From an uncultured Candidatus Saccharibacteria bacterium (lineage in GTDB: Bacteria; Patescibacteriota; Saccharimonadia; CAILAD01; GCA-016700035): a DNA stretch of 53,862 nt. Below the pieces are notes generated by a model. The model did no database searches and was not told the origin of the DNA. It saw only the letters and a list, made by a program, of their open reading frames with translations. A program made the translations under genes and the position numbers. Each line of letters begins with the position of its first letter. Position 1 is the stretch's first letter. This document shows positions 3,308-49,378 of the stretch, one piece after another. The DNA lies in assembly GCA_964432055.1 (NCBI GenBank), contig CAYSMD010000002.1:1-53862 (forward strand), in the 5' to 3' direction.

Positions 3308-3343
3308 TTTGCTGATATTATTGAGTTGAACAGGGAGCATACA

Positions 3344-3865
3344 ATGAAAGTAATTCTAGGCGGTGGGTGTTTTTGGTGCTTGGAGGCTGCCTATCAGATG
3401 GTGCGTGGTGTTGAGCGGGTGCACTCTGGCTATGCGGGTGGCGACACGCCGAACCCGAGCTACGAAGCAGTTGTGCAGGGCGACACTGGTCATGCTGAGG
3501 TTGTGGAGATAGATTTTGACGAAGCACTGGTCTCGCTAGAGAATATTTTGAATATTTTTTGGACAGTGCATGATCCAACCTCTTTAAATCGCCAGGGTGC
3601 GGACGTCGGAACGCAGTATCGGTCGGTAATTTTTTATGCCGATGAAGAACAAAAACAGGCTGCCGAAGCGTCACTCAAAGCAGCTCAGAAATTATGGGAT
3701 AAGCCGATTGTGACCAGCATTGAGCCATTGGACACGTTTTATCCGGCCGAAGACTATCACAAAGATTACTTTAAAAATCATCCTGAACAGGCGTATTGCC
3801 AAATAGTGATAAATCCTAAGCTCGCCAAGCTGCGTAAACTCCACCACGACTTGCTCAAAGGGTAA
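3344..3865 (+). CDS. msrA: peptide-methionine (S)-S-oxide reductase
   Basis: GGGCFWCLEAAY active-site motif plus GHAEVVEIDFD and HDPTSLNRQG. ATG 3344 is preceded by GGGAG (3333-3337). Confidence 0.95.
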   Translation: MKVILGGGCFWCLEAAYQMVRGVERVHSGYAGGDTPNPSYEAVVQGDTGHAEVVEIDFDEALVSLENILNIFWTVHDPTSLNRQGADVGTQYRSVIFYADEEQKQAAEASLKAAQKLWDKPIVTSIEPLDTFYPAEDYHKDYFKNHPEQAYCQIVINPKLAKLRKLHHDLLKG

Positions 3866-8026: not shown

Positions 8027-9187
8027 ATGGTTATAAAGGGCCGTAGGTCAGGAGCTGTACGTATTGGTCGTTTGATTTCACGTCACCGATGGTGGATTAT
8101 CGGTATCGCTCTCCTCATTGCAGGAGTGCTTTTCCTTATTCCTGATCGAGCAAACCCGTTTGCAAAAAGTAGCCCCGGCACCGAGTGGACCGTCGTGGTG
8201 GTTGCCGGGCAATCAAATGCCGAAGGCAGCAACTCATTTGTCTCAAACATGCCAAATGGCGAGAAGCTTGGTGATCACCCGGCTGATGACGCCTCATATA
8301 TATGGTGGCGCGCAGCCGACGGCGCCGGCCCCTCTGATGCAACTGCTTTCTTTCAGGCCCTGACGAATCCTGGCTACAATCCGGCTGGCTGGATTAGCTC
8401 TGAAAGCACTGATCCAAATATGGAAGGACTCGTCAAAATCAGCGACCTTGATCAACCGGCACCAGTTGGTCAAAAAGGACTGTTTGGCCCCGAAGTTGGC
8501 ATCGTTCGCGAACTTTATGATCAGGGCAGGAGAAACATCATCGTACTCAAGGTTTCGTATGGCTTCCAGGCTTTAGCTCTAGCAAATAGTCAATTTGTCC
8601 CGTACGACTGGTATCCAGATATTCCCGGCCAGCCACAGCGCAATAAATCCTACACGAATCTCACACAAGCTTATGGAGAATTGAAAAACTTCATCGCTAG
8701 TCGCGGAGACACACATAAAGTCTCTGGGATATTCTGGCTGCAAGGTGAAACAGATACCCTTGATTCTGGCTACACTGCAGCTTATGAGACCAATCTTGAC
8801 CTACTCGTCAATCGTCTCAAGACTGATCTCGAACTCGCACCGGGTGGCCATGTGGTATTACGTAAGTTTAATTTCCGTAACTGTCTCGATAATGCCTACC
8901 CAGCGGTAGGTAACTACTGCGGCTTTGGCTATGCGCTCGGGCTTGAGAATGCTTCGATCAATTCGATCCTGAACTTCATTACGATCAACGCGATCCAGTC
9001 TATTCCTTTGAACGCGAGTCGTGTGCGCACCGTACGCGAATCTATCCAAGATATTGCTGATAAATATGACTGGGTCGATGCTGTTGAGACAGATGATCGA
9101 CAATTCGGTAATGATTTTATCCACCTAAGCGAGCGTGGACAGCTTGATGTTGGCCGTCGAATGGTTCAAATGTATGAGGTACCCTAA
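8027..9187 (+). CDS. membrane-anchored SGNH/DUF303 (sialate O-acetylesterase-like) carbohydrate esterase
   Basis: N-terminal TM helix. VVVVAGQSNAEGSN (GQSN block), FWLQGETD and NDFIHLSERGQ match the DUF303/CE6-like catalytic blocks as I recall them. Confidence 0.75.
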   Translation: MVIKGRRSGAVRIGRLISRHRWWIIGIALLIAGVLFLIPDRANPFAKSSPGTEWTVVVVAGQSNAEGSNSFVSNMPNGEKLGDHPADDASYIWWRAADGAGPSDATAFFQALTNPGYNPAGWISSESTDPNMEGLVKISDLDQPAPVGQKGLFGPEVGIVRELYDQGRRNIIVLKVSYGFQALALANSQFVPYDWYPDIPGQPQRNKSYTNLTQAYGELKNFIASRGDTHKVSGIFWLQGETDTLDSGYTAAYETNLDLLVNRLKTDLELAPGGHVVLRKFNFRNCLDNAYPAVGNYCGFGYALGLENASINSILNFITINAIQSIPLNASRVRTVRESIQDIADKYDWVDAVETDDRQFGNDFIHLSERGQLDVGRRMVQMYEVP

Positions 9188-12100
9188 TGCAACCAGTTAG
9201 TCAGAAAATTTCCCCACTCGCGCGCGTCAAAGCGTTCTTTCATAACTTAGTACGTATCATCGCGGTACAGCCTAAGGGCTTGCTGGTAGTTGGCGTGCTA
9301 TTGGCTGTGGTGGCCGCATTCGTACTGGGCGCACTACAACTCTCAGACTTTTCTCTGAAGCCCAAGAAGACGACTGTTGCTGCGGTAAGTCCAATTATCT
9401 CTGTGAAAGACGAAACTGGTGTGGCTGAGCAGACAGTCCCAGCGGACACGCTGAAGTGGCAGAAACAGATCGAGCTCACTCCGGCTACAGCTGAGGCCAC
9501 AGCGGAAGTTTTTGAGAAAATTCTTCCCGGCCAAGACTATAAGGTAGGCAGCCTGCAGCTCCCGCCGGGCTGGAAGGCCCAGTGGTCGACGAGCCAGGTG
9601 AGCGACCCGGCACAGGCGACCTACAGTGATACGGAGCCAGGCAGTGGCGTGACATTCGTTCGCATCTACACCGATAAAGTCACGACGACGCAGCCAGTTT
9701 CGCAGGCTGGTCTCACGCAGCCACTCGATCAGTCGGCGATTGCCAGTCCCTCCGGCGCGCTGACCGTAGCGGCAGTGGAGTTTAATGATAAAGTATTCAC
9801 GATTTATCGATCGGTGGACGTGTCTGACGGCGTCAATGACAGTCAGAATATGACAATTGGCTGTCTGGATCTCACGACGTATGAAACGTGTACGGGCGCT
9901 GGTGTGACGTATCCGACGTATATGTCCTCGAGCTCAGGTACTTTACTGGGAGAGGCTGGCTCACCGAAGGACATTAGCACGCCGATGGCTCTCAAGTATG
10001 CCCTTGACGATGGTGCGTATGGCAATGAAGGCAGGCTCTACATTCCGGCCCAAAAAGCCAATGAATATGGAGTTAACTGCGTAGACTTGGCGACCGAACA
10101 AAACTGCGGCTTTACGGCTTTTGGTAGCTCAGCGGCACCAAATCAAAGTACTGACCGAAATCCGTCTCGCATTACTGGCTTCGCACAGAGCGGCAGCAAG
10201 CTCTATGGTCATGCCACGACCAACGACGGCGATGGCGTCGTGAATGACGACTATATGCAGATCACATGCTTTGACATGCAGACCGACGCCCAGTGTGCTG
10301 GTTATACCGGTGCAGTAAACTCAGTAATCCCAAGTTATTACATTAATGAACACTACAATGAGTTCTACACACCCGGCCAGAACATCATTGAGGGTGATAA
10401 GTATTATTTTCTCTTAAACTATGATCAAGGCAACCAGTGGATCAACAACTTGCAGGGACAAAATTACACGCAGACTTTGTTCGGCAACCGGCTTGTCTGC
10501 TACGACGTGTCGACACAGGCGACGTGTACGGGCTGGCCGACAGCCAATCCAGAATACCGGGCGTGCGTCTGGGAAGTTGGCTACTATGGGTTCCAATGCT
10601 ATCAAAGGCAGCAAACTGTATATGGTTCGTTTATCTCGGAAGATATCGCGCAGGCGATCGCCCCAAATCAGCTCTTTTTAGCCAAGGATAATCAAGGCAA
10701 TACGACTGCTATCTGTGTCGTAGCCGGGCTCTATAATGGTGTTGACCCTGGGGTAATCTGTCGAGACAAATCGACTGGTGCCCCACTGCAAGGCGCCGTA
10801 CCCCCGGGCTTCATGCCTCTTCAGTGGCTCAATATTCCTTGGAGTCCTGGCTTCGCCTCAACCCAGCTCACGGACAATAGCACGAATACCGACCGCATTT
10901 ATTCATCCTTCCGGCTTCCAGCCAACAGCATATGGGGTGGTAGGCAAAAGGCAGCGTTGGTGTGCTATGACTGGAAGACGCAAGCTCCATGTGACGGTTT
11001 TCGATACCCGCATTATTGGTACGAGATAGACCAAGCCGATAGTGCTGATGTTGGCTATTTTCAAGATCATAACTGCATGATTGGAGTGAGTGAATACAAT
11101 TATCTCTGGTCATTTGATCGCGACACTGGTGAAACCCCATGCCGCAAAACCACAAACCAAGTTGACATCAAGCCGGCTCTGAGTACGCCGAGTGCATTTT
11201 GTGATGGATTGTCGCGCAATAATCTTTCTTGGGCAAAACTGCAGCTCAACAGCGTAAATCTCTACGACTTTGAATACGTTGATATTACGATCAAGGGTAA
11301 GAATGGGGTGGTCGTAGGTAGCTTCAATGAGGTAAATATTAAGGATATTGAGAGTATCGACTTATCGGGGGTGCCGTACTCGGGTAACACAGACGAGCTG
11401 CAGGTAGAGGTGAAAACGACTGTATGGAATACAACTCCTTGGGCAGAGAATGCTGGGCCAAATGAGGATCAGCGCAACTTACCACTCGTTACGGTTGTTC
11501 TCAATGGAGACCCAGCTCAATACTGTTACCAGACCATCGTTGATGACCGCTGTAACATCGAGTCGGTGAGCACGCTGAGCGATATTACGATTACCAGCGA
11601 GGGAACTACGAATGAGCTGACTGAAAATACGAGTCAAGAGGTGTATCAGGAGCCTGCCGAAAAATGCGTGCGCAAGCTCAACCTCAGCTCTTCGGCGAAT
11701 AAATCGACTGTGACGGCGAATGAGTTAGTGACGTATACCGTGGATGTGGGTAATGAGGCGAATCCAGATCCGCAAAGCCTTGGGGATGTAGCTGATGCTA
11801 GAATTGAGACCACAATTCCTGGCGGAGCAACCTTGGAGTCCGCAACTGGCGGCTACACGGTAGAGGGAAATAAGATCATTTGGGCAAATGAAACCATTGA
11901 AGCTCTTGGCACTACACAGAAAACGATTACCGTACGCATCCCAACCTTAGCGAGTCGGTCACCCCTGCCGTGGCTGATTGGTCGAGCGGAAGCGGCCGGC
12001 CCACTCGCATTCCAAACGAGCGTATTTTACACAGACAGTACCGAAGCTCAGGCAACCACTACTAGTAGCGTAGTCGTAAACTATGTCGCCCCAAGCGCAC

Positions 12101-13635
12101 CACCGCCAACTAGTACGATTACTCCTAGCACAACACCAACGCCAAGCGAAACCCCGACCCCAAGCCCATCTGAATCACCATCTGAGTCGCCAAGTCCAGA
12201 AGCTAGTGTGAGCCAGTCAACTCCGCCAAGCAGTGGCCCGAGTGGTGGCTCCGGTGGTGGTGCAACTCGACGATCCGTACAGCCGGAAAATACTTCTTCA
12301 ACGTTCCTTTCCGAGATCCTGCCAGAATCAGTTGTCAGTCAAATCCGTCTGGTACCTGAAAATACAGCTCGTACTGTGCCGTTCGTACTGATCACGATCC
12401 TGTTCTTTATTGCGGTCTTCTATGCCCGCCAGGCATGGCTTGAGCTGCGCAATATGCAGCGGCTCGATGTGATCGTCAAGCGATACCAGGCTACACAAGA
12501 AGCCAATAAGAACTTCGTTGCACTCACGAGTCACTATCTCAACACACCGGTCAATATCTTGCAGGCCTCCACGGAGCTCCTCAAGAGCCAAAAGACCGTC
12601 AGCGAAGAAACTCTCTCCAAGCTCAAACTTGCCGTAGACAACTTAGCGCAGGACGTGAAAGATCTGGTCTCGGGTAGCCAGGAATTCAGCCAGCATGTCG
12701 CGCAAAGCAACGCAGAGGTTTCGAAGCTCAACATGGGGCGGCTCATGCGCAACTTGCATGTTTTGATTCCGATCGGTGTGGCGGCACTGACACTTGCGAT
12801 CGTGAACTTGCTCTTCACGCAAACAGATCGCTATGACCTCAGTGGGCTCATGCTCCTCGGCCAAAGCCTCGCGTTCATCCTCGCTATACTTGGTATAGTC
12901 GGTGCGTATCGCTCATATCTACGCAACCGCGCCACCAAAGACACGATTCAGCACCAAATTAAGCTCGAGGGAGACCTGCTCAAACGACGTGAAGAATTCA
13001 TCATCAAGAGCTACGACCAGCTGAACGCGGACTTTGGCTTCGTCCAGCAGTATGGTTCTGAAATTCCGGCAAAGAGTCCAAGTAAGAAGACGTTCGATAA
13101 CGGCCTGGCGATGCTCTCCGCGGTACTCAGTAAATTCCATGCCCTCATCAACTTCTCCAAGCCGCTCGAGAAGCTCCCAGCCGCCATATCGGTAGCGCCG
13201 GCGTTCGAAAAAGCCTTGCGAGATCTCAAGCCGCAGATTGATGCGAAGCAGCTGACGGTAAAGAATAACATTCCAGCGAACCTAACTGTCTCACTCACGA
13301 CCGACGCACTCACACAGCTCACGATGTCGGTAATTGATAACGCAGTGAAGTTCAGTAAGCAAAATGGCTCGATCCAGATTAGTACCTCGCAGCGATCTGG
13401 CAAAATCATGCTGCATATCAAAGATGATGGTATAGGGATCCCTAAGGCTAAGCTTGACCAGCTGATGACACCATTCTCGCGAGCCACTGATGTCCTGAAA
13501 TTTGACTACGAGGGAATTGGCCTGAATCTCTACCTCAATAAAGTGGTCACAGAGCAGTATGGTGGATCAATCAAGCTTCGCTCGAATCAGGGTAAGGGTA
13601 CTGAAGTAACCATCACGCTACCAGCACATCAGTAG
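9187..13635 (+). CDS. giant (1482 aa) surface protein fused to a histidine-kinase core
   Basis: The ATG overlaps the upstream stop (TAATG). Layout: N-terminal TM, paired-Cys repeats (aa 226-652), an Ig/DUF11-like segment, a P/S/T linker, a TM helix, H-box FVALTSHYLNTPV, two more TM helices, then HATPase_c (DNAVKFS, DDGIGI, GIGLNLY, GKGTEVTI). Confidence 0.85.
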   Translation: MQPVSQKISPLARVKAFFHNLVRIIAVQPKGLLVVGVLLAVVAAFVLGALQLSDFSLKPKKTTVAAVSPIISVKDETGVAEQTVPADTLKWQKQIELTPATAEATAEVFEKILPGQDYKVGSLQLPPGWKAQWSTSQVSDPAQATYSDTEPGSGVTFVRIYTDKVTTTQPVSQAGLTQPLDQSAIASPSGALTVAAVEFNDKVFTIYRSVDVSDGVNDSQNMTIGCLDLTTYETCTGAGVTYPTYMSSSSGTLLGEAGSPKDISTPMALKYALDDGAYGNEGRLYIPAQKANEYGVNCVDLATEQNCGFTAFGSSAAPNQSTDRNPSRITGFAQSGSKLYGHATTNDGDGVVNDDYMQITCFDMQTDAQCAGYTGAVNSVIPSYYINEHYNEFYTPGQNIIEGDKYYFLLNYDQGNQWINNLQGQNYTQTLFGNRLVCYDVSTQATCTGWPTANPEYRACVWEVGYYGFQCYQRQQTVYGSFISEDIAQAIAPNQLFLAKDNQGNTTAICVVAGLYNGVDPGVICRDKSTGAPLQGAVPPGFMPLQWLNIPWSPGFASTQLTDNSTNTDRIYSSFRLPANSIWGGRQKAALVCYDWKTQAPCDGFRYPHYWYEIDQADSADVGYFQDHNCMIGVSEYNYLWSFDRDTGETPCRKTTNQVDIKPALSTPSAFCDGLSRNNLSWAKLQLNSVNLYDFEYVDITIKGKNGVVVGSFNEVNIKDIESIDLSGVPYSGNTDELQVEVKTTVWNTTPWAENAGPNEDQRNLPLVTVVLNGDPAQYCYQTIVDDRCNIESVSTLSDITITSEGTTNELTENTSQEVYQEPAEKCVRKLNLSSSANKSTVTANELVTYTVDVGNEANPDPQSLGDVADARIETTIPGGATLESATGGYTVEGNKIIWANETIEALGTTQKTITVRIPTLASRSPLPWLIGRAEAAGPLAFQTSVFYTDSTEAQATTTSSVVVNYVAPSAPPPTSTITPSTTPTPSETPTPSPSESPSESPSPEASVSQSTPPSSGPSGGSGGGATRRSVQPENTSSTFLSEILPESVVSQIRLVPENTARTVPFVLITILFFIAVFYARQAWLELRNMQRLDVIVKRYQATQEANKNFVALTSHYLNTPVNILQASTELLKSQKTVSEETLSKLKLAVDNLAQDVKDLVSGSQEFSQHVAQSNAEVSKLNMGRLMRNLHVLIPIGVAALTLAIVNLLFTQTDRYDLSGLMLLGQSLAFILAILGIVGAYRSYLRNRATKDTIQHQIKLEGDLLKRREEFIIKSYDQLNADFGFVQQYGSEIPAKSPSKKTFDNGLAMLSAVLSKFHALINFSKPLEKLPAAISVAPAFEKALRDLKPQIDAKQLTVKNNIPANLTVSLTTDALTQLTMSVIDNAVKFSKQNGSIQISTSQRSGKIMLHIKDDGIGIPKAKLDQLMTPFSRATDVLKFDYEGIGLNLYLNKVVTEQYGGSIKLRSNQGKGTEVTITLPAHQ

Positions 13636-13641
13636 AATACT

Positions 13642-14301
13642 CTAAACGTCAGTTAGTTCACGCAGCTTTGAGAGGTTAATCTCGAAGCCAGATTGACGAT
13701 TTCGAAAGAGGCCATTGCGAGCTGGCTTCAACACACCAGCCTTGGTGAGCTGGCGTATCTGAACTGTCATAGTCTCACGAGTAGTGCCAACCATGCTGGC
13801 GAGCTGGGCGTGCGACAGTGGGAAGGGAAGCGTGATAATGCCTTCACTTGTTTCGGTGCCAAAGCGCTGCACAAGCAGAGCAAGGTAGTTGACCAGCTTC
13901 ATATCGGCCTTAGCCTGGAGGATGTTGTCGAGTGTCTGCGCTAATTCGTCATTACGCGTCATGACATAGCGCACCAGGTCAATCAGGGCAGGGGGATTAC
14001 CGGTGATGAGTTTTTCGAGCTGGTCGGCCGATACCACCTGAACTTTTCCATCGGTCATTGCTTCGTAATAGTAGCGGTGAGTAGCCTCTTGGAAGAGGGC
14101 AGCTTCAAGATTCATGACATCACCAGGACCCAGAATAGCGATGAGTTTCTCGTCGCCATCGTCGGCAATCGTGTACGTTTTAATAAACCCATCCGTCAGG
14201 TAGTAGACTTCGGCTCCAACTTCATCTTGATGAAGTAAGACATCACCCTTTGTAAAGGCTTCGGCTTTGTACTGCATAAAGAACTTCCTGAGCTGTTTCA
14301 T
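13642..14301 (-). CDS. Crp/Fnr-family transcriptional regulator
   Basis: A cNMP-binding-like beta-roll (FTKGDVLLHQDEVGAEVYYLTDGFIK) with a C-terminal HTH (SHAQLASMVGTTRETMTVQIRQL). Start chosen at MKQLRKFF. Confidence 0.85.
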   Translation of the reverse strand: MKQLRKFFMQYKAEAFTKGDVLLHQDEVGAEVYYLTDGFIKTYTIADDGDEKLIAILGPGDVMNLEAALFQEATHRYYYEAMTDGKVQVVSADQLEKLITGNPPALIDLVRYVMTRNDELAQTLDNILQAKADMKLVNYLALLVQRFGTETSEGIITLPFPLSHAQLASMVGTTRETMTVQIRQLTKAGVLKPARNGLFRNRQSGFEINLSKLRELTDV

Positions 14302-14361
14302 ACGTATAAGTATAGCAAGTCGGGTAGCATGGCACGAAAGAAAGCCGTACAATAAGAGTCT

Positions 14362-16149
14362 ATGCGTGACATTTGGAAAATTATTCGATACTCTTCAGAG
14401 CTCCGTCTTTACTACATTGCAATCGCTATCTTCGTCGTCATTTTGGCACTTCTGAACCTGGTAATCCCTTTTCTTACTAAGCAACTTGTCGATCTCATTA
14501 CTGCGCAGAGCAATGGGCAGACAGTCAATTTCCAGGATGCGCTCTTGCCACTGAGCCTCATGCTCGTTGCCGGTATTATCACCGCCGGGCTTTCAAATAT
14601 TAATGGCTATCTGGGTGACCGCATGAGCGTGAAGCTCAATAGCTTGCTCAGTCAACGCTACTACCAGCACCTCATGCGCTTGCCGATCGCCTACTATGAC
14701 TCCGAGCAGACCGGTAAGATTACTTCTCGACTCGAGCGATCAATCTCGAGCCTTTCACAGCTCATGAATGCGCTTGCGAATAACTTTGTACAGTTTTTCC
14801 TAACAACACTTATTACGCTCATTGCGATTGCGATTTATTCATGGCCTGTGGCACTGCTGCTCACGGTGATTTTCCCGACCTATATCTGGATCACTCATCT
14901 CTCGAGTAAGGCCTGGCAGAAGAAGCAGGGGAAGATCAATCAGACTCTTGATACAGCCAACGGTCGGTTTGTAGAGTCAATAGGTCAGATTCGGGTTGTC
15001 AAATCATTTGTTCGTGAAGAGGGTGAGCTGGCCGACTTTCGCAAACGTCGCAAACGGATAGAGGATGTCTCGCGAGATCAGTCGGTGGAGTGGCATAAAT
15101 ACGATGCAGTCCGTCGTCTTGTGCTTGGCGTTGTGTTCTTCGCGATCTTCGCCGTGATTGTCTGGCAGGCCCTCCAGGGGATGTATAGCGTTGGTACCGC
15201 CGTACTGCTCATCACGCTCGCGAACCAGGCGCAATTCCCGCTGTTTGGCACGAGCTTTATCATCGAGGGCATCCAGCGCGCTCAGGCAGATAGCCATGAT
15301 TACTTTAAGATCATGGAAAAGGAGCCAACCATCGTAGATGTGGAGGGTGCTCGCTCGCTGAAGATCAAGGGCGGAGAGGTGCACTTCTCACACGTGACCT
15401 TTGGCTATGAGAACGGCGGCACTGTGTTAAGTGACGTAAGCTTCACCATACCAGCACATAGCAAGGTCGCTCTAGTTGGTGAGTCGGGTGAAGGAAAGTC
15501 GACAATTGCAAATCTGATCGTGCGCTTCTATGAAGCAACCGGCGGCATGATTACGATCGATGATACGCCAATTAGCACCGTTACTCAGAAGTCGCTCCGG
15601 CAGAATATTGGTATCGTATTTCAGGATCCGGCACTGTTTTCAGGGACGATCGAAGATAATATCGCGTATGGGATCGGCCGCAAATACACGCAAAAAGAGC
15701 TCCAAACCGCAGCGAAGATGGCAAACGCAGCCGACTTTATCGCCAGGCTGTCCAAGGGCTATGCCACTGAAGTAGGTGAGCGCGGCGTGAAGCTTTCGGG
15801 AGGCCAGAAACAGCGAATTATCATTGCCCGGGCTCTTTTGAAGAACCCGCCAATTCTCATCCTGGACGAAGCCACAAGCTCACTTGACGCAAAGGCCGAG
15901 TCGCAGGTACAGGAGGCCTTAGAGCGCCTCATGAAGGGTCGTACGACGATCATTATCGCGCACCGACTCTCGACGATTGCGCATGTTGACCAGATCATTG
16001 GAATTCGCGGTGGCAATGTTGCAGAACAGGGAACGCCTGATGAGCTCGCCACAAAGCGGGGCGGCATCTATGCCGAGCTTTTACAGTTACAGACTGCATC
16101 AGCACCGACCGCCAAGAAGAAACTCAAAGAATTTGATATCTCGGCGTAG
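14362..16149 (+). CDS. ABC exporter, fused permease/ATPase (MsbA/multidrug type)
   Basis: Six-TM domain followed by GESGEGKST (Walker A), LSGGQKQR (signature), ILILDEATSSLD (Walker B) and the H-loop IAHRLST. Confidence 0.95.
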   Translation: MRDIWKIIRYSSELRLYYIAIAIFVVILALLNLVIPFLTKQLVDLITAQSNGQTVNFQDALLPLSLMLVAGIITAGLSNINGYLGDRMSVKLNSLLSQRYYQHLMRLPIAYYDSEQTGKITSRLERSISSLSQLMNALANNFVQFFLTTLITLIAIAIYSWPVALLLTVIFPTYIWITHLSSKAWQKKQGKINQTLDTANGRFVESIGQIRVVKSFVREEGELADFRKRRKRIEDVSRDQSVEWHKYDAVRRLVLGVVFFAIFAVIVWQALQGMYSVGTAVLLITLANQAQFPLFGTSFIIEGIQRAQADSHDYFKIMEKEPTIVDVEGARSLKIKGGEVHFSHVTFGYENGGTVLSDVSFTIPAHSKVALVGESGEGKSTIANLIVRFYEATGGMITIDDTPISTVTQKSLRQNIGIVFQDPALFSGTIEDNIAYGIGRKYTQKELQTAAKMANAADFIARLSKGYATEVGERGVKLSGGQKQRIIIARALLKNPPILILDEATSSLDAKAESQVQEALERLMKGRTTIIIAHRLSTIAHVDQIIGIRGGNVAEQGTPDELATKRGGIYAELLQLQTASAPTAKKKLKEFDISA

Positions 16150-16244
16150 CGCCCTTCACGCATAAGCACTTTGCATTGCTTAGTAGAACGCCTTACAATA
16201 ACAGCAGTTCGAACAATATTCATTAGAGGAGTTATCATACAGCT

Positions 16245-18264: not shown

Positions 18265-19287
18265 TCAGCTCTCCCATTTCTGGGGCAGGCGCAGATCAAT
18301 CCCTTCTAAAGGCTCCTCTGGTGATTCATCTATGCAGGCGCGAAAGTCTACCTCAAGCTGCTTGGCGTCAAAGTTCGTACCAATAAACACCATACGGGTC
18401 GCGTGGTCTTCGTCCTGACTCCAATTATCCCAGTAGAGCTCTGAGCGAGTGCCTACCAGCTGAAATACATACTTACGAGAATGACCTTTTGTACCGAGGT
18501 CAATAAATCCCTTTGCGCGGTAGACTGACTTTGGAATCTTGTTATTCACAAACTCCTGAAACTTCATCGGATGAAGTGGCTTATCAAGACTAATTGAGAG
18601 GTGTGAAAACTGATCGTGCAAGTGGCTATGCTCACCATCATGGTCGTGGTCGTGATCATGCGCTTCGGCTTCATCCCAAGTGCGATCTGGGTCAGTGAGC
18701 AGGCGAATATCAACCTGCGCCTTTACAGCTTCGAAGACGCGGGCACGTGGGTTTGTCAGCTCCACCAGCTGTCGAATTTCGCTGATTCGATCTTCACTCA
18801 CGACATCGGTCTTGTTGATGATGACGAAGTCGGTAAACTCTATCTGGTCGGCAGCATTTTTGTGCTTCTTAGCGTTCTCCATTACATGCTCGGCATCAAT
18901 GAGAGTGACGATCGCATCGAGTCGAACACCGATCCCGATCATATCGCGTAGGTTCAGCGCGAGATCACGCGGCTCAGCCAGCCCAGATGCCTCGATGACG
19001 ATCAAATCAATGTCACTGCCTTTGTAGGCAAATTGTGCGATAGCTTCTTGGAGGTCGAGTGTTTCAAGTGAGCAGCAAATGCAGCCGTTACTTAGCTCGA
19101 GCTTCGTATCGGTTTGTCCCGCGACGAGCTCGGAATCAATATTGATCGCACCGAAGTCATTCACCACCACACCAATCTTGAGCCCATGTGGCTCGCGCAG
19201 CAGGTGATTTACAAACGTCGTCTTGCCACTCCCAAGGAAGCCGGTGACGGCGAGGATGGGGATTTTTTTAGTGTGGTGAGTGGTCAT
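18265..19287 (-). CDS. CobW/G3E-family GTPase metallochaperone with His-rich insert
   Basis: P-loop GFLGSGKTT, CXCC motif GCICCS, and His/Asp run EAHDHDHDHDGEHSHLHD. Confidence 0.9.
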   Translation of the reverse strand: MTTHHTKKIPILAVTGFLGSGKTTFVNHLLREPHGLKIGVVVNDFGAINIDSELVAGQTDTKLELSNGCICCSLETLDLQEAIAQFAYKGSDIDLIVIEASGLAEPRDLALNLRDMIGIGVRLDAIVTLIDAEHVMENAKKHKNAADQIEFTDFVIINKTDVVSEDRISEIRQLVELTNPRARVFEAVKAQVDIRLLTDPDRTWDEAEAHDHDHDHDGEHSHLHDQFSHLSISLDKPLHPMKFQEFVNNKIPKSVYRAKGFIDLGTKGHSRKYVFQLVGTRSELYWDNWSQDEDHATRMVFIGTNFDAKQLEVDFRACIDESPEEPLEGIDLRLPQKWES

Positions 19288-19323
19288 GAGTTAGATACCT
19301 CTTATGCTACAATATATCTGAAT

Positions 19324-21024
19324 ATGGAGTCGAAAGCTGCCGTCCGTCAGTCCCGTACCAGCGTCGTCGATCAATCGACGTTTCGTGCGATTGTCCGTAT
19401 CTGCGCTCTGGCTGACGTAATCGGCATTATTGCCGTAGTCGTGCTCTATAATTATTCGCAAAGCCTGCGAGTTTCACTAGCTTATTCTATCGCACTGATA
19501 GCCTTGCTGACCATCGGCCTGATTTACAACCTATTCTTTTGGCGTCGCGTAAATCGTAAGCGGCCACTCGTTGCCATACAGTTCGCGATTCTGCCGCTTA
19601 CGCTGTCTATCATCATCGCGACCTTTTTTACCGGCGGTTTGAATTCGCCGTGGTACCCAATGTGGTACGTGGCGATTCTCTGTAGCGGCATGACGGGTAC
19701 GCTTTCGGTGACGCACACAGCCGGGCTCACATTCATCCTGTATCTGCTGAGCTTTCATCTGTCTCAGCGATCTGATGTAGTTACGATGGGCACTCCGATA
19801 CAGGCCTTGTCGACAGTTATTGCCATCATTGCTGCATATATCATCGGTCGCGGCATGGATCGCATGGTAAAGACGATGCAGGTTGCCGAAAGCCTCACCA
19901 AGCAGCTCGATGGATCCGAACTAAAGCAACAGCTGATGCTCGGCGCAATCGCCGATTCAGTTGTTGCCGTCGACCGCGATAGGAAAGTCGTGATTTTTAA
20001 TAATGCCGCCCAGAAAGTCACCGGCTGGGATGACACCAGTGCCAAAGGTATTTACTATAATCTCATCTTCAAGCTACATGACCAAAACGACGCCGAGCTC
20101 ACCCCGCAAACTGACCCATTTATGCAGGTTATGGCAGCAAGCCAGTCGTTGACGACGGATAGCTACTATATGCTCGATAAGAATAATCGCAAAATCGCGT
20201 TTTCGATTGCAATTGCGCCAACTCTAGATGCGCATGGTGAGGTTAATGGTGCAATTGGAATATTCCACGACATATCCGACCAAAAAGCCCTCGCGCGGGA
20301 GCGCAACGAGTTTATCTCCACTGCCAGCCATGAAATGCGCACCCCAGTAGCTGCGATCGAAGGCTATCTTTCTATGGCTATGAACCCACAGCTGGCGACA
20401 ATTGACCCACGTGCCAAGAGCTTTGTTGACAAGGCCCACGAGGCGAGCCTACATCTTGGAAAGTTATTCCGCGATCTCTTATCGGTCACCAAGATTGAAG
20501 ATCATCGCCTGACCATTAAGGTGGCCCAATTTAATCTGACAGACCTCTTGCACAACGTAATTAACGAAATGGACATCATCGCCCGCAACAAGACCATTAC
20601 TATCGAAAGTCCATTTGCCGCCACAGCTGAAGGTGCTGCAAAGGTTCTGGTGCCAGCCTACTACGTTAAAGCTGATCCCGACCGAATTCGTGAAGTTCTC
20701 AATAACCTTATTGATAATGCGATTAAATATAGCCAGCCAAGCGGTAAAGTGCAGGTGGTCATTACTGCCGATCAGCATTTCGCACAAGTCCGCATCAGTG
20801 ACAGCGGTATCGGAATTTCGCCAGAAGACCAAAAGCATCTCTTTCAGAAATTCTACCGGGTTAATAATAGCTTCACTCGAGAAGTTGGCGGTACCGGCCT
20901 TGGCTTATACATAGCTCGGAACCTCATTGAACTCTTTGGTGGCAAGATCTGGCTTGAGTCGGAGGAAGGCAAAGGGTCGAGTTTTTATTTCACACTGCCA
21001 ATAGATCTAACCCCTCATCAATAG
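19324..21024 (+). CDS. sensor histidine kinase (polytopic N-terminus, PAS, HisKA, HATPase_c)
   Basis: H-box FISTASHEMRTPV, N-box NLIDNAIKYS, G1 DSGIGI, G2 GTGLGLYI. Start set at ATG 19324 because the longest ORF start (19114) runs antisense through the CobW gene. Confidence 0.9.
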   Translation: MESKAAVRQSRTSVVDQSTFRAIVRICALADVIGIIAVVVLYNYSQSLRVSLAYSIALIALLTIGLIYNLFFWRRVNRKRPLVAIQFAILPLTLSIIIATFFTGGLNSPWYPMWYVAILCSGMTGTLSVTHTAGLTFILYLLSFHLSQRSDVVTMGTPIQALSTVIAIIAAYIIGRGMDRMVKTMQVAESLTKQLDGSELKQQLMLGAIADSVVAVDRDRKVVIFNNAAQKVTGWDDTSAKGIYYNLIFKLHDQNDAELTPQTDPFMQVMAASQSLTTDSYYMLDKNNRKIAFSIAIAPTLDAHGEVNGAIGIFHDISDQKALARERNEFISTASHEMRTPVAAIEGYLSMAMNPQLATIDPRAKSFVDKAHEASLHLGKLFRDLLSVTKIEDHRLTIKVAQFNLTDLLHNVINEMDIIARNKTITIESPFAATAEGAAKVLVPAYYVKADPDRIREVLNNLIDNAIKYSQPSGKVQVVITADQHFAQVRISDSGIGISPEDQKHLFQKFYRVNNSFTREVGGTGLGLYIARNLIELFGGKIWLESEEGKGSSFYFTLPIDLTPHQ

Positions 21025-21104: not shown

Positions 21105-21533
21105 ATGACAAAAATTCTCCTCGTCGAAGACGATGTAAATCTACGCGACATATATTTTGCGCGCTTCCAGGCTGATAACTATGAACTAGCCGTTGCATCG
21201 AATGGCGAAGAAGCGTTAGCGATTGCCGTAAAAGAAAAACCTGACCTCATTTTGCTCGATGTCATGATGCCGCGCATATCCGGATTTGATGTTCTCGATA
21301 TCTTGCGATCTACTCCGGAAACCAAAAGCACCAAAGTGATTATGATGACTGCGTTGTCAGAGCAGACCGATAAGGATCGCGGTAAGGCGCTCGGAGTTGA
21401 TGAATACCTGGTCAAGAGCCAGGTAACACTCGAAGATGTTGTTGCAACCGTCAAGAAAGTCCTCGGATCGAGCGCTCAGGCCTCTCCAAAGCCGGAGCAA
21501 CCAACGACTCCTCCCACCCCAGCCGCTCAATAG
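21105..21533 (+). CDS. stand-alone response-regulator receiver with Pro/Thr-rich tail (no output domain)
   Basis: LLVEDD, the phospho-acceptor context LILLDVMMP, MMTAL and YLVKS are all present. The tail is PKPEQPTTPPTPAAQ. Confidence 0.9.
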   Translation: MTKILLVEDDVNLRDIYFARFQADNYELAVASNGEEALAIAVKEKPDLILLDVMMPRISGFDVLDILRSTPETKSTKVIMMTALSEQTDKDRGKALGVDEYLVKSQVTLEDVVATVKKVLGSSAQASPKPEQPTTPPTPAAQ

Positions 21534-45600: not shown

Positions 45601-46302
45601 CTAGGATAGTGTCTGCGAGCGGAGTCGAGGGACTCCTGTTTGGTAGTGCCAGAAATGCTGGATAACTGGCTTGAGTTCAAGAAACGCTTCGTCAGCACCG
45701 GTGATGCGCAAGATCTGCTCGAGCGGAGACGAAGAGCATACTCGCCACAGCTTCCGCGCGGACGCCGAGACTACTTCTCCAGTCTCTAATCCAAACCGAC
45801 CATCTGGCACATTCAAACGCAGGGCGTCGCTCGAAGCTGGAAATTCGGGCGACAAGCCGGCAAGCACCAGATAGTGCGCCAGTGAAGCCACCCAGATGCG
45901 GACAATCTGACCAGGATTCGCCGGATGATCCAAGCCTCGCAACGCAGTAATCAGCCAGTCATACCAGGTCGGTTCGGCCGACGCATCGACGAAACAACGA
46001 TCAGTTAATTCCAATAGAGATTGTGCGCAGACGAGCGCATCATAATCATCCATGATTCCTTGGTAGCTCTCCTGCAAGCGAGCTCCTGTTACCACTGATA
46101 CCGACCTCCCGACAACGCACTCGACACGAATCGTGCTCAGCGGCTCCAGAGCACCAGCCAGCTTCGCACCGGCTCGTCGAACACCTTTCGCTCGCACCCA
46201 CAGACCACCTTGCTCGCGCGAAAAAATGCGAATCAGTCGGTCTGCCTCACCTACTTCTCGCCTCACCAACACAACTGCGTGAAGCGTCGAAGTCTGGCTC
46301 AT
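45601..46302 (-). CDS. recO: DNA repair protein RecO
   Basis: LHAVVLVRREVGEADRLIRIFSREQGGLWVRAKGVRR is the OB-fold N-terminus typical of RecO. Confidence 0.85.
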   Translation of the reverse strand: MSQTSTLHAVVLVRREVGEADRLIRIFSREQGGLWVRAKGVRRAGAKLAGALEPLSTIRVECVVGRSVSVVTGARLQESYQGIMDDYDALVCAQSLLELTDRCFVDASAEPTWYDWLITALRGLDHPANPGQIVRIWVASLAHYLVLAGLSPEFPASSDALRLNVPDGRFGLETGEVVSASARKLWRVCSSSPLEQILRITGADEAFLELKPVIQHFWHYQTGVPRLRSQTLS

Positions 46303-46700
46303 GCGGCGGCTCCGACTAAGTCGGCTACCACCCGCACTACTTCCTCAGGTGTCGTTCGTTGCTTCACAATATATGCCCCTACACCCAGCGACTCTTGCAG
46401 ACTGTGATACAGGCCAACATCTGCCGCTTCAACTACAGTAAGAAATAGCACCGGAGTTTTGTGAGTCGAAGTGAGTGCTCGCAGATCCTTCACGAGTTTT
46501 AAGCCGTTCTTGCCCGGAAGCAGCACTTCACTCACGATACCATCAATGTCTTGGTCTTTGACAACCGCTAAAGCCTCTCGTGCATCCTGCGCGTACACAA
46601 CCTGCGCTCCTGCTTGACTCAGGTAGCGACCATATACCTCTGCAAAAACTCGATCTTCATCGACTAGTAAAAGTGTAAACCCATCCAACATAGCCTTCAT
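46299..46700 (-). CDS. stand-alone receiver-domain protein with Glu at the phospho-acceptor position
   Basis: LLLVDEDR acidic pocket. DGIVSEVLLPGKNG aligns with the canonical DlvllDi.mPg.dG, which places E58 (codon 46527-46529, GAA) where Asp is expected. T (LFLTV) and K (YIVKQ) are retained. The stop overlaps the recO start (ATGA). Confidence 0.8.
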   Translation of the reverse strand: MKAMLDGFTLLLVDEDRVFAEVYGRYLSQAGAQVVYAQDAREALAVVKDQDIDGIVSEVLLPGKNGLKLVKDLRALTSTHKTPVLFLTVVEAADVGLYHSLQESLGVGAYIVKQRTTPEEVVRVVADLVGAAA

Positions 46701-48203: not shown

Positions 48204-48734
48204 CTATTTTGCCGTCAAGAGCTGCTCGCCTGGATGCCAATCAATTGGACAAAGACCGCCAGTCTGGAGGGCCTGGACTACTCGGAGGGTTTCGGTGACC
48301 GAACGGCCAACATTTCCATCTGAAACCACAAAGTAACGGATCTTCTGGTCTGGATCAATGACGAAAAGTCCTCGTTCGGCTTCTCCACCCTCTTCATTCA
48401 AAACTTCGTAGGCCTTTGATAGCCGATGAGCAGGATCTTCGGCAATGGCGTATTCAACGTCCTTTAGGTCACGCTCGAACCATGCCTTGTGGCTCTGGAT
48501 CGTATCCGTCGAAGCAGCTAGAACTTCGCAGTTCGCCTTTTGAAAGTCTGCATAGTGCTTTTGAAAGCCTTCGATCTCAGTCGGGCAAACGAAGGTAAAA
48601 TCACGTGGGTAGAAAAAGAGCACCAGCCATTTGCCGGCGTAGTTCTTCAGACTGACTTCACGATAGTCTCCTTCGACACCTTTTTGGTAAGCGGCAGCCG
48701 TAAAATCTGGCGCCTGTTCGTTGAGCTTCAACAT
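48204..48734 (-). CDS. typical 2-Cys peroxiredoxin (AhpC/Prx1 type)
   Basis: FFYPRDFTFVCPTEI (peroxidatic Cys) and the C-terminal GGLCPIDW (resolving Cys). Confidence 0.95.
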   Translation of the reverse strand: MLKLNEQAPDFTAAAYQKGVEGDYREVSLKNYAGKWLVLFFYPRDFTFVCPTEIEGFQKHYADFQKANCEVLAASTDTIQSHKAWFERDLKDVEYAIAEDPAHRLSKAYEVLNEEGGEAERGLFVIDPDQKIRYFVVSDGNVGRSVTETLRVVQALQTGGLCPIDWHPGEQLLTAK

Positions 48735-48775
48735 ATATTTTTCCTCCTTATAAAGAAATTAACTGTGTGTACTAG

Positions 48776-49378
48776 CTACTTGGTAAACTTATCAACCGCC
48801 CACTGAGGGATACGCTCGTTGACTGCCTGCCAATTCACAAGCTTCATAAATTGTGAGACATAATCCTTGCGAGCCGTTGCGTAATCGAGAAAATAGGCGT
48901 GCTCATACACATCAAGCACCAAAAGTGCCCCTGTGTTCCAGACACCCCCTTGATTATGAGCATCACAAATGTAATTCTCAAGCCGCTGATTGTCAAAATC
49001 CCAGGCTAGCACCACCCAGCCCCTTGATGCGAGTCCGAGTGCTGCAAAATCCTCTGCCCATGCAGCAACACTCCCCCACTGCGCTTCGATGAGCTGCTGA
49101 ATTGCGCCTTCACACGACTGCTCCTCTGACGACATGTTTTCAAAGTAGGCTTCATGAAGCTTAATTGCATTGAGGGCAAATACTTTTTCAATATTTATCT
49201 CGCGGATCTCGGCATAGGTTCCGTTCGCACCCTCTGTAGCGGCATCCTTGGCGAGGACTCGCAATTCATTGTACTTTTTCACATAACCTTCATAGAGCTT
49301 GTAGTGCTCCGTAAGTTGTCGCTCGGTGATTCCTGGCAGTTCTTTGTATTGTAATGGCTTGGCCGTTAATTCTGACAT
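48776..49378 (-). CDS. Fe/Mn superoxide dismutase
   Basis: HYKLYEGYV, and DVYEHAYFLDY matching the D-x-W-E-H-A-Y-Y motif. Confidence 0.95.
   Translation of the reverse strand: MSELTAKPLQYKELPGITERQLTEHYKLYEGYVKKYNELRVLAKDAATEGANGTYAEIREINIEKVFALNAIKLHEAYFENMSSEEQSCEGAIQQLIEAQWGSVAAWAEDFAALGLASRGWVVLAWDFDNQRLENYICDAHNQGGVWNTGALLVLDVYEHAYFLDYATARKDYVSQFMKLVNWQAVNERIPQWAVDKFTK

Follow-up and report, generated by a model that had tools for sequence, protein, structure and literature searches.

What kind of receptor is produced when an extracytoplasmic region of adhesin size and a histidine kinase core are encoded by one and the same gene? This question is raised by the open reading frame (ORF) at 9187..13635 (+) of a 53,862-nucleotide stretch of DNA from an uncultured Candidatus Saccharibacteria bacterium (assembly GCA_964432055.1, contig CAYSMD010000002.1; this whole stretch is referred to below as the window, and positions are those of the window unless another locus is named). 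Saccharibacteria have reduced genomes and live on other bacteria, the cultured representatives being epibionts. In textbook histidine kinases, the phospho-acceptor His is carried by a dimerization hairpin that is joined directly to the ATP-binding domain, and it is from this geometry that cis/trans phosphorylation and signal transmission are explained. The family described here departs from that geometry. Based on the evidence presented below, we favor with moderate confidence a scheme in which the window protein is an esterase-coupled sensor histidine kinase with four transmembrane (TM) segments and an integrin-like ectodomain, whose catalytic ATP-binding (CA) domain, mounted on a His-less dimerization and histidine-phosphotransfer hairpin (pseudo-DHp2), would phosphorylate His1116 on a second hairpin of this kind (DHp1).

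The ORF starts with ATG, encodes 1482 aa, and contains zero internal stops. A GAGG motif lies 8 nt 5' of the ATG, which overlaps the stop codon of the upstream esterase gene within TAATG (9185-9189). The uninterrupted ORF and this overlap had both been reported in an earlier annotation made from the DNA letters alone (hereafter the sequence-only reading), and every feature of the layout listed there was recovered in the present analysis: an N-terminal TM helix, about 1000 aa outside the cell, a linker, a TM helix, an H-box, two more TM helices, and a C-terminal HATPase_c domain. The order of the last three elements was correct; the separation of the His from the CA domain and the His-less DHp2 had, however, been overlooked. 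A promoter and terminator scan around the operon gave no excess of sites over shuffled sequence.

Organization of the cytoplasmic module

A profile of the module (aa 1040-1482), built from 11 family members, was searched against all PDB sequences. The whole DHp and CA unit of the Thermotoga kinase HK853 (residues 7-247) aligned with the region after TM4, in which no conserved residue of the family stands opposite the histidine of the HK853 'ISHELRTP' motif. A second, weaker stretch (18.9 bits, E 0.005) paired HK853 residues 10-75 with the region between TM2 and TM3 and placed 'LTSHYLNTP' on 'ISHELRTPL'. The module therefore contains two DHp-like hairpins. For each hairpin, a profile was made that starts 32 residues ahead of the His or the corresponding position, and hhalign aligned the two profiles in register (probability 83.5%, E 8e-6), with His1116 opposite Asp1277; on this profile evidence, the arrangement is an internal duplication.

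The first hairpin, DHp1 (aa 1084-1181; 12436..12729, +), is delineated by a HisKA match of 20.9 bits, by the HK853 alignment, and by the predicted helices H19-96 and H101-142 of an AlphaFold2 (AF2) model. Its H-box, FVALTSHYLNTP, includes the proposed phospho-acceptor His1116 (codon 12532-12534). Conservation was counted over 160 aligned matches, with about 155-157 residues in each column. Among 155 relatives, 154 have the His, and the logo of the H-box in the family reads [FY][LIV]x[LI]x[ST]-H-Y-L-[NR]-T-P. HisKA kinases normally have an acidic residue (Glu/Asp) after the His, which acts in autophosphorylation, and a Thr at H+4 that is part of a phosphatase motif. At H+1, the family has Tyr in 146/155 sequences, His in 6/155, and an acidic residue in 0/155, while the Thr at H+4 (H-box, aa 1116-1121, H-Y-L-N-T-P, nt 12532-12549) is kept in 95% of relatives.

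The second hairpin, DHp2 (aa 1243-1323; 12913..13155, +), was identified by the HK853 alignment and is a predicted pseudo-DHp, Asp1277 (nt 13015-13017) being the equivalent of the His. This column contains His in 3/157 sequences, and conservation in the hairpin comprises a Glu at -16, an Arg at -9, and otherwise core hydrophobic positions only. Motifs such as 'AAHELQS' (in L010) and 'AHTL' (in L014) persist there in a few members, which shows that DHp2 derives from an ordinary DHp. It is followed by the CA domain (aa 1335-1482; 13189..13632, +), in which the N (DNAVKFS), G1 (DDGIGI), F (PFSR), and G2 (GIGLNL) boxes are all recognizable and which is matched by HATPase_c (PF02518) at aa 1373-1481 with 77 bits (E 2e-21, cut-off 26.4). 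The N, G1, and G2 boxes are intact in 26/27 aligned members, the exception being the homolog P0012, and the Pro-Phe of the F-box is nearly invariant in aligned homologs. A Foldseek search with the predicted structure of DHp2 plus CA retrieved HK853, ZraS, KinB, YycG, and DivL, with TM-scores per target of 0.55-0.72; together with the Pfam match, this upholds the kinase fold that had been assigned to the C-terminus from the letters. NCBIfam gave matches of the whole protein to generic kinase models only, far under their cut-offs.

The AF2 model of aa 1040-1482 (pLDDT 78.8, pTM 0.58) predicts a single helix running from TM2 through DHp1 alpha-1 (aa 1058-1135), a return helix (aa 1140-1181), TM3 (aa 1190-1212), a 7-residue loop, a single helix running from TM4 through DHp2 alpha-1 (aa 1220-1290), DHp2 alpha-2 (aa 1298-1323), and then the alpha/beta CA domain. 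The hairpins are of about equal length, His1116 lying 33 residues below TM2 and D1277 35 residues below TM4. Unlike in the HisKA class, the His-bearing DHp1 is not contiguous with CA, from which it is kept apart by TM3, TM4, and DHp2.

In common with the class I HisKA kinases, represented by HK853 (PDB 2c2a, 3dge), the window kinase has a CA domain with all ATP boxes, a homologous DHp, and the H-box core x-S-H-x-L-x-T-P. It differs from HK853 in that the DHp with the His is not attached to CA, a TM hairpin and the His-less DHp2 being placed between them, in the Tyr that replaces Glu/Asp after the His, and in having no HAMP or PAS linker. A His on a separate helical domain and a His-less dimerization domain adjoining CA are also the logic of CheA (class II), a likeness that is functional only. 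In CheA, the His is located on a soluble, flexibly tethered HPt four-helix bundle, and a DHp-like dimerization domain lacks the His. The His domain of the window kinase, by contrast, is a DHp paralog anchored in the membrane at both ends, and no P2 or CheW-like domains accompany it. The CheA matches found in the PDB search with the module profile cover the CA domain only, and Pfam detected no HPt or CheW match in the window kinase, which is thus not of the CheA class.

Membrane topology

Hydropathy peaks at aa 30-52, 1060-1083, 1187-1213, and 1216-1245 define four segments of membrane length, which match the TM helices of the sequence-only reading (one N-terminal, one at aa 1064-1080, and two more after the H-box). 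Basic residues are concentrated on the N-terminal side of TM1 and on the C-terminal side of TM2 and TM4, and the loop between TM3 and TM4 is short and slightly acidic. This pattern fits a predicted topology in which the N-terminus is inside, aa 53-1061 are outside, and aa 1084-1186 and 1243-1482 are inside. TM1 (aa 30-52; 9274..9342, +) would act as an N-in signal anchor, with a hydropathy peak of 3.0 and five basic residues in aa 1-30. The extracellular juxtamembrane segment (aa 1040-1061; 12304..12369, +) is conserved and marks the start of the family-wide signaling module: a profile of the module without CA matches from about position 2 in members with unrelated ectodomains, and hence covers this segment. 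P1057 is kept in 85% of relatives and P1065, in TM2, in 93%. TM2 itself (aa 1062-1083; 12370..12435, +) is supported by hydropathy and by AF2, which predicts one helix continuing into DHp1. The same two lines of evidence delimit the hairpin formed by TM3 and TM4 (aa 1187-1212 and 1218-1242; 12745..12912, +), with its short outside loop and the residues P1195, N1207, and Q1226. Among 156 relatives, P1195 is conserved in 93%, position 1207 (TM3) is N/D in 88%, and position 1226 (TM4) is Q/E/H in 95%. A passive spacer role for TM3 and TM4 was considered and dropped, given the conserved Pro and the buried polar residues.

A putative propeller and stalk outside the membrane

The ectodomain (aa 53-1061) opens with a predicted beta domain (aa 85-215; LKWQKQI..PPGWKAQ..STS; 9439..9831, +), which is supported by AF2 strands, is kept in all propeller-type homologs, and has no Pfam match. 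The adjacent region (aa 216-660; 9832..11166, +) resembles a Cys-stapled beta-propeller, as judged from conserved Cys pairs, an all-beta AF2 model, and Foldseek. Sixteen of the 20 Cys residues of the protein fall within aa 226-652 and form eight consecutive pairs, of which five are canonical C-x-D-x6-C hairpins (226/235, 298/307, 361/370, 438/447, 593/602); the other pairs are 460/471, 510/525, and 630/652. All these Cys residues are invariant or nearly so among 10-13 homologs and are conserved in 12/12 homologs sharing this ectodomain. Seven paired-Cys repeats had been counted earlier; the number of pairs is eight, yet a count of seven blades still fits if 460/471 is taken as an extra pair.

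The AF2 model of aa 56-968, computed from 10 sequences, is all-beta (pLDDT 71.7, pTM 0.54). When this model was compared with the PDB by Foldseek, a check that the sequence-only reading had proposed, the top 21 matches were integrin alpha chains (E 6e-13 to about 2e-9), mostly over at least 850 colinear columns, with TM-scores of about 0.2 and 8-10% identity; alpha-2-macroglobulins and the Bacteroides hybrid sensor BT4673 (3va6) were also retrieved. We read this as a shared integrin alpha architecture, with a predicted propeller head followed by beta-sandwich legs, and homology is not implied. The order of propeller head, beta-sandwich legs, and TM helix is common to both proteins (about 880 columns for the match at E 6e-13), but with such identities and TM-scores, and no FG-GAP detected, the likeness is one of architecture only. 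The predicted leg domains (aa 661-967; 11167..12087, +) consist of AF2 strands colinear with the integrin alpha legs. At the level of sequence, the ectodomain profile had no significant match in the PDB, Pfam at E<=1 yielded nothing on aa 216-660 (FG-GAP repeats included), and on three pieces of the ectodomain it yielded the weak DUF11 match and nothing else. The putative propeller is thus new at the sequence level.

The DUF11 match (PF01345) covers aa 831-919 (11677-11943, +) within the legs, where 19.3 and 17.5 bits were obtained against a gathering score of 24.6. The Ig/DUF11-like segment noticed earlier is therefore a real match, although a sub-threshold one; in some homologs the domain is above threshold, relatives reaching up to 28 bits. 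DUF11 has been renamed CLIPPER, a CnaA-like stalk domain of fibrillar adhesins that is often isopeptide-bonded (bioRxiv 10.1101/2025.04.25.650565). By eye, the CLIPPER-like domain (aa 830-960; nt 11674-12066) carries in distant homologs an 'ADK' on its first and a 'DN' on its last strand, which are candidate isopeptide residues; in the clade of the window protein 'ANK' is present and 'DN' is missing. The legs are followed by a low-complexity linker rich in Pro, Ser, and Thr (aa 968-1027; 12088..12267, +), present where the sequence-only reading had placed it, which in homologs varies in length or is replaced by other inserted sequence, such as Big_7 in the protein of L007.

Fibrillar adhesins with CLIPPER stalks share with the window protein a DUF11/CLIPPER-like Ig domain, a Pro/Ser/Thr linker, and a large beta-rich surface region. 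The window protein differs from them in having a single, sub-threshold DUF11-like domain, no tandem stalk repeats and no sorting signal, and in being TM-anchored and ending in a kinase. The second comparison is with the Bacteroides hybrid two-component sensors, in which a glycan-binding ectodomain made of Reg_prop and Y_Y_Y domains places very large propellers on kinases. Those represented by BT4663 and BT4673 have in common with the window protein a very large propeller and Ig-like sensor outside the membrane on a histidine kinase. The cytoplasmic core is different, the phylum is unrelated, and the fold match to 3va6 is weak. Membership of this group was rejected: neither Reg_prop (PF07494) nor Y_Y_Y (PF07495) was found at E<=0.1, there is no receiver or AraC domain, and the protein ends at CA. 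The adhesin-like style noted earlier is borne out by the propeller, Ig/CLIPPER stalk, and Pro/Ser/Thr linker; the statement that ectodomains of this size and style normally belong to adhesins and not to kinases is overstated in view of the Bacteroides sensors. The role of contact or surface-glycan sensor that the sequence-only reading suggested for the protein is putative.

An esterase gene coupled to this ectodomain

The gene immediately upstream (8027..9187, +) is predicted to encode a membrane-anchored, extracytoplasmic carbohydrate acetyl-esterase of the SASA/DUF303 (SGNH-type) family (PF03629, 51 bits against a cut-off of 24.8). Its orthologs keep the N-terminal TM anchor and the motifs GQSNA, QGETD, and DFIHL (DxxHL), and its named relatives are from Saccharibacteria. 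Conservation of the esterase-kinase pairing, another check proposed by the sequence-only reading, was found in all the loci with this ectodomain type for which upstream DNA was available (the window, L001, L002, L006, L007, L011, L013, L018, L020, L021, L023, L024, and L025): an esterase ortholog lies directly 5' of the kinase, overlapping it or at most 14 nt away, in 13/13 cases. Three of these loci (L023, L024, and L025) were reached from the esterase side, and their downstream genes are intact family kinases. The other genes flanking the pair differ between loci. The conserved pairing makes action of the esterase and the kinase on a shared extracellular substrate plausible and is the best evidence for it. 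A family member of the DUF285 type has no esterase upstream of the kinase, which indicates that the esterase is tied to this ectodomain and not to the kinase cassette.

LuxPQ and TorTS are kinases with a co-encoded extracytoplasmic, solute-binding partner. In LuxP-LuxQ and TorT-TorS, as in the window, the gene of an extracytoplasmic protein is located directly 5' of the kinase gene, and the two are conserved together. The partner in the window is not a solute-binding protein; it is predicted to be a membrane-anchored enzyme, namely a SASA acetyl-esterase.

A family of receptors with exchangeable ectodomains

A family profile of aa 1051-1335, extending from TM2 to DHp2 without CA, was scored against 1.84 billion cluster representatives; 738 matched at E<=1e-3, 540 at E<=1e-10, and 156 at E<=1e-30. 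Of the 284 positions of the profile, each of the best 150 covers the greater part, in most cases without a break. Of the 157 family proteins checked, 133 start with Met and combine in one chain a region N-terminal to the module, the module itself, and a tail of CA size. In these 133 complete-looking members, the tail after the module has a median of 164 residues, which is the size of a CA domain, and the module is preceded by 71-3996 aa (median 1052), with more than 1000 aa in 75 of them; a TM-like segment is found at the start in 113. Pfam scans of eight proteins from related loci and of 22 diverse representatives revealed propellers of the NHL, SBBP, RCC1 or Kelch types, Ig-like domains (fn3, Big_7, TIG, PKD, He_PIG), and DUF285 repeats in the ectodomains. 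On these profile data, the module is a portable signaling cassette, mostly placed on 'propeller plus Ig stalk' surface domains. The direct fusion of an adhesin-like region to a kinase, on which the sequence-only reading had remarked, is therefore no singular event: the module family comprises hundreds of clusters with diverse giant ectodomains.

HisKA was detected at E<=1e-4 in just 2 of the 22 diverse representatives, so that database annotation shows HATPase_c alone. Since standard annotation sees nothing else, the family is invisible in current genome annotations. The architecture is not a named family in Pfam or in NCBIfam, and searches of the open-access literature on Saccharibacteria or Patescibacteria kinases and on tandem, pseudo- or second DHp domains retrieved no description of it. 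The family, its membrane-split duplicated phospho-acceptor core, and its conserved esterase coupling thus appear to be undescribed.

In a scan of one genome per species, motifs of the protein were found in 17 loci, 16 of which have the C-terminal 440-residue module. Fourteen of these 16 are labeled Saccharibacteria, Saccharimonadales or Saccharimonadota; the remaining two are L004, labeled 'uncultured Pseudomonadales' and on a short contig, and L012, a plain 'bacterium'. The 17th locus, from a Chitinophagaceae, matches through the generic kinase core only. The family appears to be centered on Saccharibacteria. The L004 contig (CAZQBH010000053.1, 7.7 kb) carries a family kinase whose module is 54% identical to that of the window and close to that of the Saccharibacteria metagenome-assembled genome (MAG) of L003; the contig has probably been mis-binned as Pseudomonadales. 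The MAG CAYVVS01 (L003, L005) has at least two module paralogs, one of which is cut by the contig end while the other, of 2653 aa, bears NHL propellers and fn3 domains. Single genomes can thus hold several such receptors.

Proposed mechanism and alternative explanations

In the scheme that we favor, the ectodomain would bind a surface polymer of the host or of the environment, most likely an O-acetylated glycan that would also be the substrate of the co-translated, membrane-anchored SASA esterase. The signal would pass through the conserved juxtamembrane segment to TM2 and to the polar TM3/TM4 pair. Carried by the pseudo-DHp2 scaffold, the CA domain would then phosphorylate His1116 on the neighboring DHp1. 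The phosphoryl group would next be handed to a response regulator whose gene lies elsewhere, probably one of the receiver-only type. The geometry is compatible with phosphorylation of His1116 by CA: DHp1 alpha-2 and DHp2 alpha-1 are expected to be neighbors because the hairpins are about equally long and TM3 and TM4 are connected by 7 residues. The ligand, the oligomeric state, and the route of phosphorylation are those that we infer from these data.

Several observations weigh against this scheme. Every functional statement on the kinase is in silico, and the modeled packing of DHp1 on DHp2, as well as the access of CA to His1116, rests on helix lengths and not on a contact map. The Pfam HisKA match of DHp1 (aa 1107-1160) lies below its cut-off (20.9 versus 26.9 bits), and because Tyr replaces the acid after the His, catalysis may differ or be weak. 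The outer part may have a kinase-independent role, since P0012 has lost its kinase motifs. This homolog of 1486 aa no longer has an H-box (the stretch reads LASRIISLI) or the N and G1 boxes, while the ectodomain, all TM segments and, probably, the esterase are retained. Neither the PDB profile search nor Pfam at E<=1 provided the propeller with a sequence relative of known function. The 60-residue low-complexity linker between the ectodomain and TM2 disfavors a rigid piston transmission from the propeller and favors clustering or pull, or else sensing at the level of the juxtamembrane segment and the TM helices. Finally, no receiver domain is encoded within 7 kb of the kinase gene in the window, nor within 8-10 kb of the kinase in L018, L020, and L021.

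The alternative that survives best is a more specific version of the same scheme, in which the helices of DHp1 and DHp2 pack within a single chain into a four-helix bundle, in imitation of the bundle that ordinary kinases build as a DHp homodimer. The receptor would then be a monomeric kinase with one His and one CA domain, and phosphorylation would be obligately 'trans-like' within the chain. This is possible, if clearly less probable than the general scheme. The hairpins are homologous and equally long, the His and its equivalent are at the same depth below the membrane, and the 7-residue loop between TM3 and TM4 ties them together; moreover, DHp2 retains core hydrophobic positions only, as expected of a packing partner, and the His has been lost on exactly one copy, which fits a division of labor. 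However, an eight-helix homodimer explains the same observations, the pTM of the module model is only 0.58, and in a mean-field direct-coupling analysis of 153 sequences the top pairs were all artefacts of gaps or termini.

A slightly weaker possibility concerns the nature of the input. The adhesin-like ectodomain might grip the host, and pull or clustering would be conveyed through the linker to the juxtamembrane segment and TM2, making the receptor a sensor of contact or tension and not of a soluble ligand or a glycan. The integrin alpha-like architecture, the CLIPPER/DUF11 stalk domain known from load-bearing fibrillar adhesins, and the epibiotic life of cultured Saccharibacteria all agree with this proposal, as does the long flexible Pro/Ser/Thr linker, which is unable to carry a rigid conformational change. 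The same module is furthermore found on many unrelated propeller/Ig ectodomains, which makes a generic input, for example pull or clustering, more probable than a ligand-specific one. On the other hand, the strict coupling of this ectodomain type to an esterase points to a chemical substrate, in about 31 of the 133 members the module is preceded by fewer than 300 residues, which is too few for an adhesin, and the clade of the window protein seems, by eye, to be without the Asn of the CLIPPER isopeptide pair.

The two preceding proposals can be merged into a single joint claim, which we regard as rather unlikely in its entirety: that Saccharibacteria have evolved their own class of receptor kinases, monomeric, mechanically gated, and integrin-like, for episymbiotic host contact. 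In this subfamily, the ectodomain would engage the host surface after or together with de-O-acetylation by the esterase; pull or clustering would act through the juxtamembrane segment and a polar four-TM bundle on a DHp1/DHp2 pseudo-dimer with a single CA and a single His; and receiver-only proteins would signal to non-transcriptional targets, for example the attachment or pilus machinery.

It is less probable still that His1116 is not autophosphorylated at all and that DHp1 serves other kinases, for instance the PAS kinase encoded at 19114-21024, as a surface for relay or phosphatase activity, or that the protein is mainly an adhesin with a regulatory, non-catalytic tail. The Tyr found at H+1 in 94% of relatives instead of an acidic residue, the absence of the His from the DHp attached to CA, the Thr of the phosphatase motif kept at H+4 in 95%, and the persistence of the degenerate member P0012 would be in line with such a role. 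Yet the presence of the ATP-binding boxes in 26/27 members and of the His in 154/155 is hard to explain without ATP-dependent phosphorylation of the His. The weakest alternative, an artefact of assembly or gene calling in which a chimeric contig or a sequencing error joined a surface protein gene to a kinase gene, is scarcely credible: the unusual size of the ORF is the sole point in its favor, and a chimera or a frameshift is excluded for practical purposes, and was dropped, because colinear full-length homologs at 90, 70, 50, and 35% identity are found in independent ENA, Logan, JGI, and NCBI assemblies, the single-chain organization of 133/157 family proteins also speaking against it.

With its hairpin duplicated, the two copies set apart by a membrane hairpin that has buried polar residues, and the His kept on the distal copy only, the family offers a natural experiment on the extent to which the canonical kinase geometry is required. 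It also represents a possible route to a single-chain kinase and a membrane-anchored counterpart of the solution adopted by CheA. Members of the family rank among the few signaling proteins of Saccharibacteria, and their ectodomains, which are adhesin-like, reach about 4,000 residues, and in one subfamily are locked to a surface esterase, make them concrete candidates for the sensing of host surfaces by these bacteria.

Candidate response regulators and neighboring genes

The remark that no response regulator is adjacent to the kinase in the window was accurate: the nearest receiver is at 21105-21533, beside another kinase. This gene (21105..21533, +; PF00072, 80.9 bits) encodes a receiver-only response regulator, 142 aa long and with a tail rich in Pro and Thr, and is a candidate partner. 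Among the genes of the window, it is the most similar (32-39% identity) to the receiver-only genes that adjoin the kinases in L001 and L007. Directly 5' of it lies a canonical PAS-HisKA-HATPase_c kinase (19114-21024, +), with which it forms an ordinary two-component pair. The true start of this kinase is probably later than listed, since the listed TTG overlaps a CobW-like gene on the opposite strand (18265-19287). A second candidate partner is an orphan receiver-only response regulator of 133 aa (46299..46700, -; PF00072, 54.2 bits). Its stop overlaps the start of recO (45601-46302, -), and no kinase is nearby.

Receiver-only genes adjoin the esterase-kinase pair in three of the 13 loci (L001, L023, and L007). 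In L001 (6318-7582, -) and L023 (5064-6278, -), three of them are arranged in tandem and are divergent from the pair, while in L007 a single one (15791-16165) is convergent and just downstream of the pair. A receiver-only protein is therefore a reasonable guess for the partner of the kinase.

Downstream of the kinase gene in the window, a Crp/Fnr-type regulator (13642-14352, -) is divergent from an MsbA-like ABC exporter (14362-16149, +). The listed starts of the two genes are 9 nt apart, which leaves no room for two promoters; one of these starts has probably been mis-set, or else the arrangement is unusual. The window also contains oxidative-stress genes encoding an AhpC/TSA peroxiredoxin, an Fe/Mn superoxide dismutase, and MsrA (48204-49378, -; 3326-3865, +), a set that is notable for a reduced genome.

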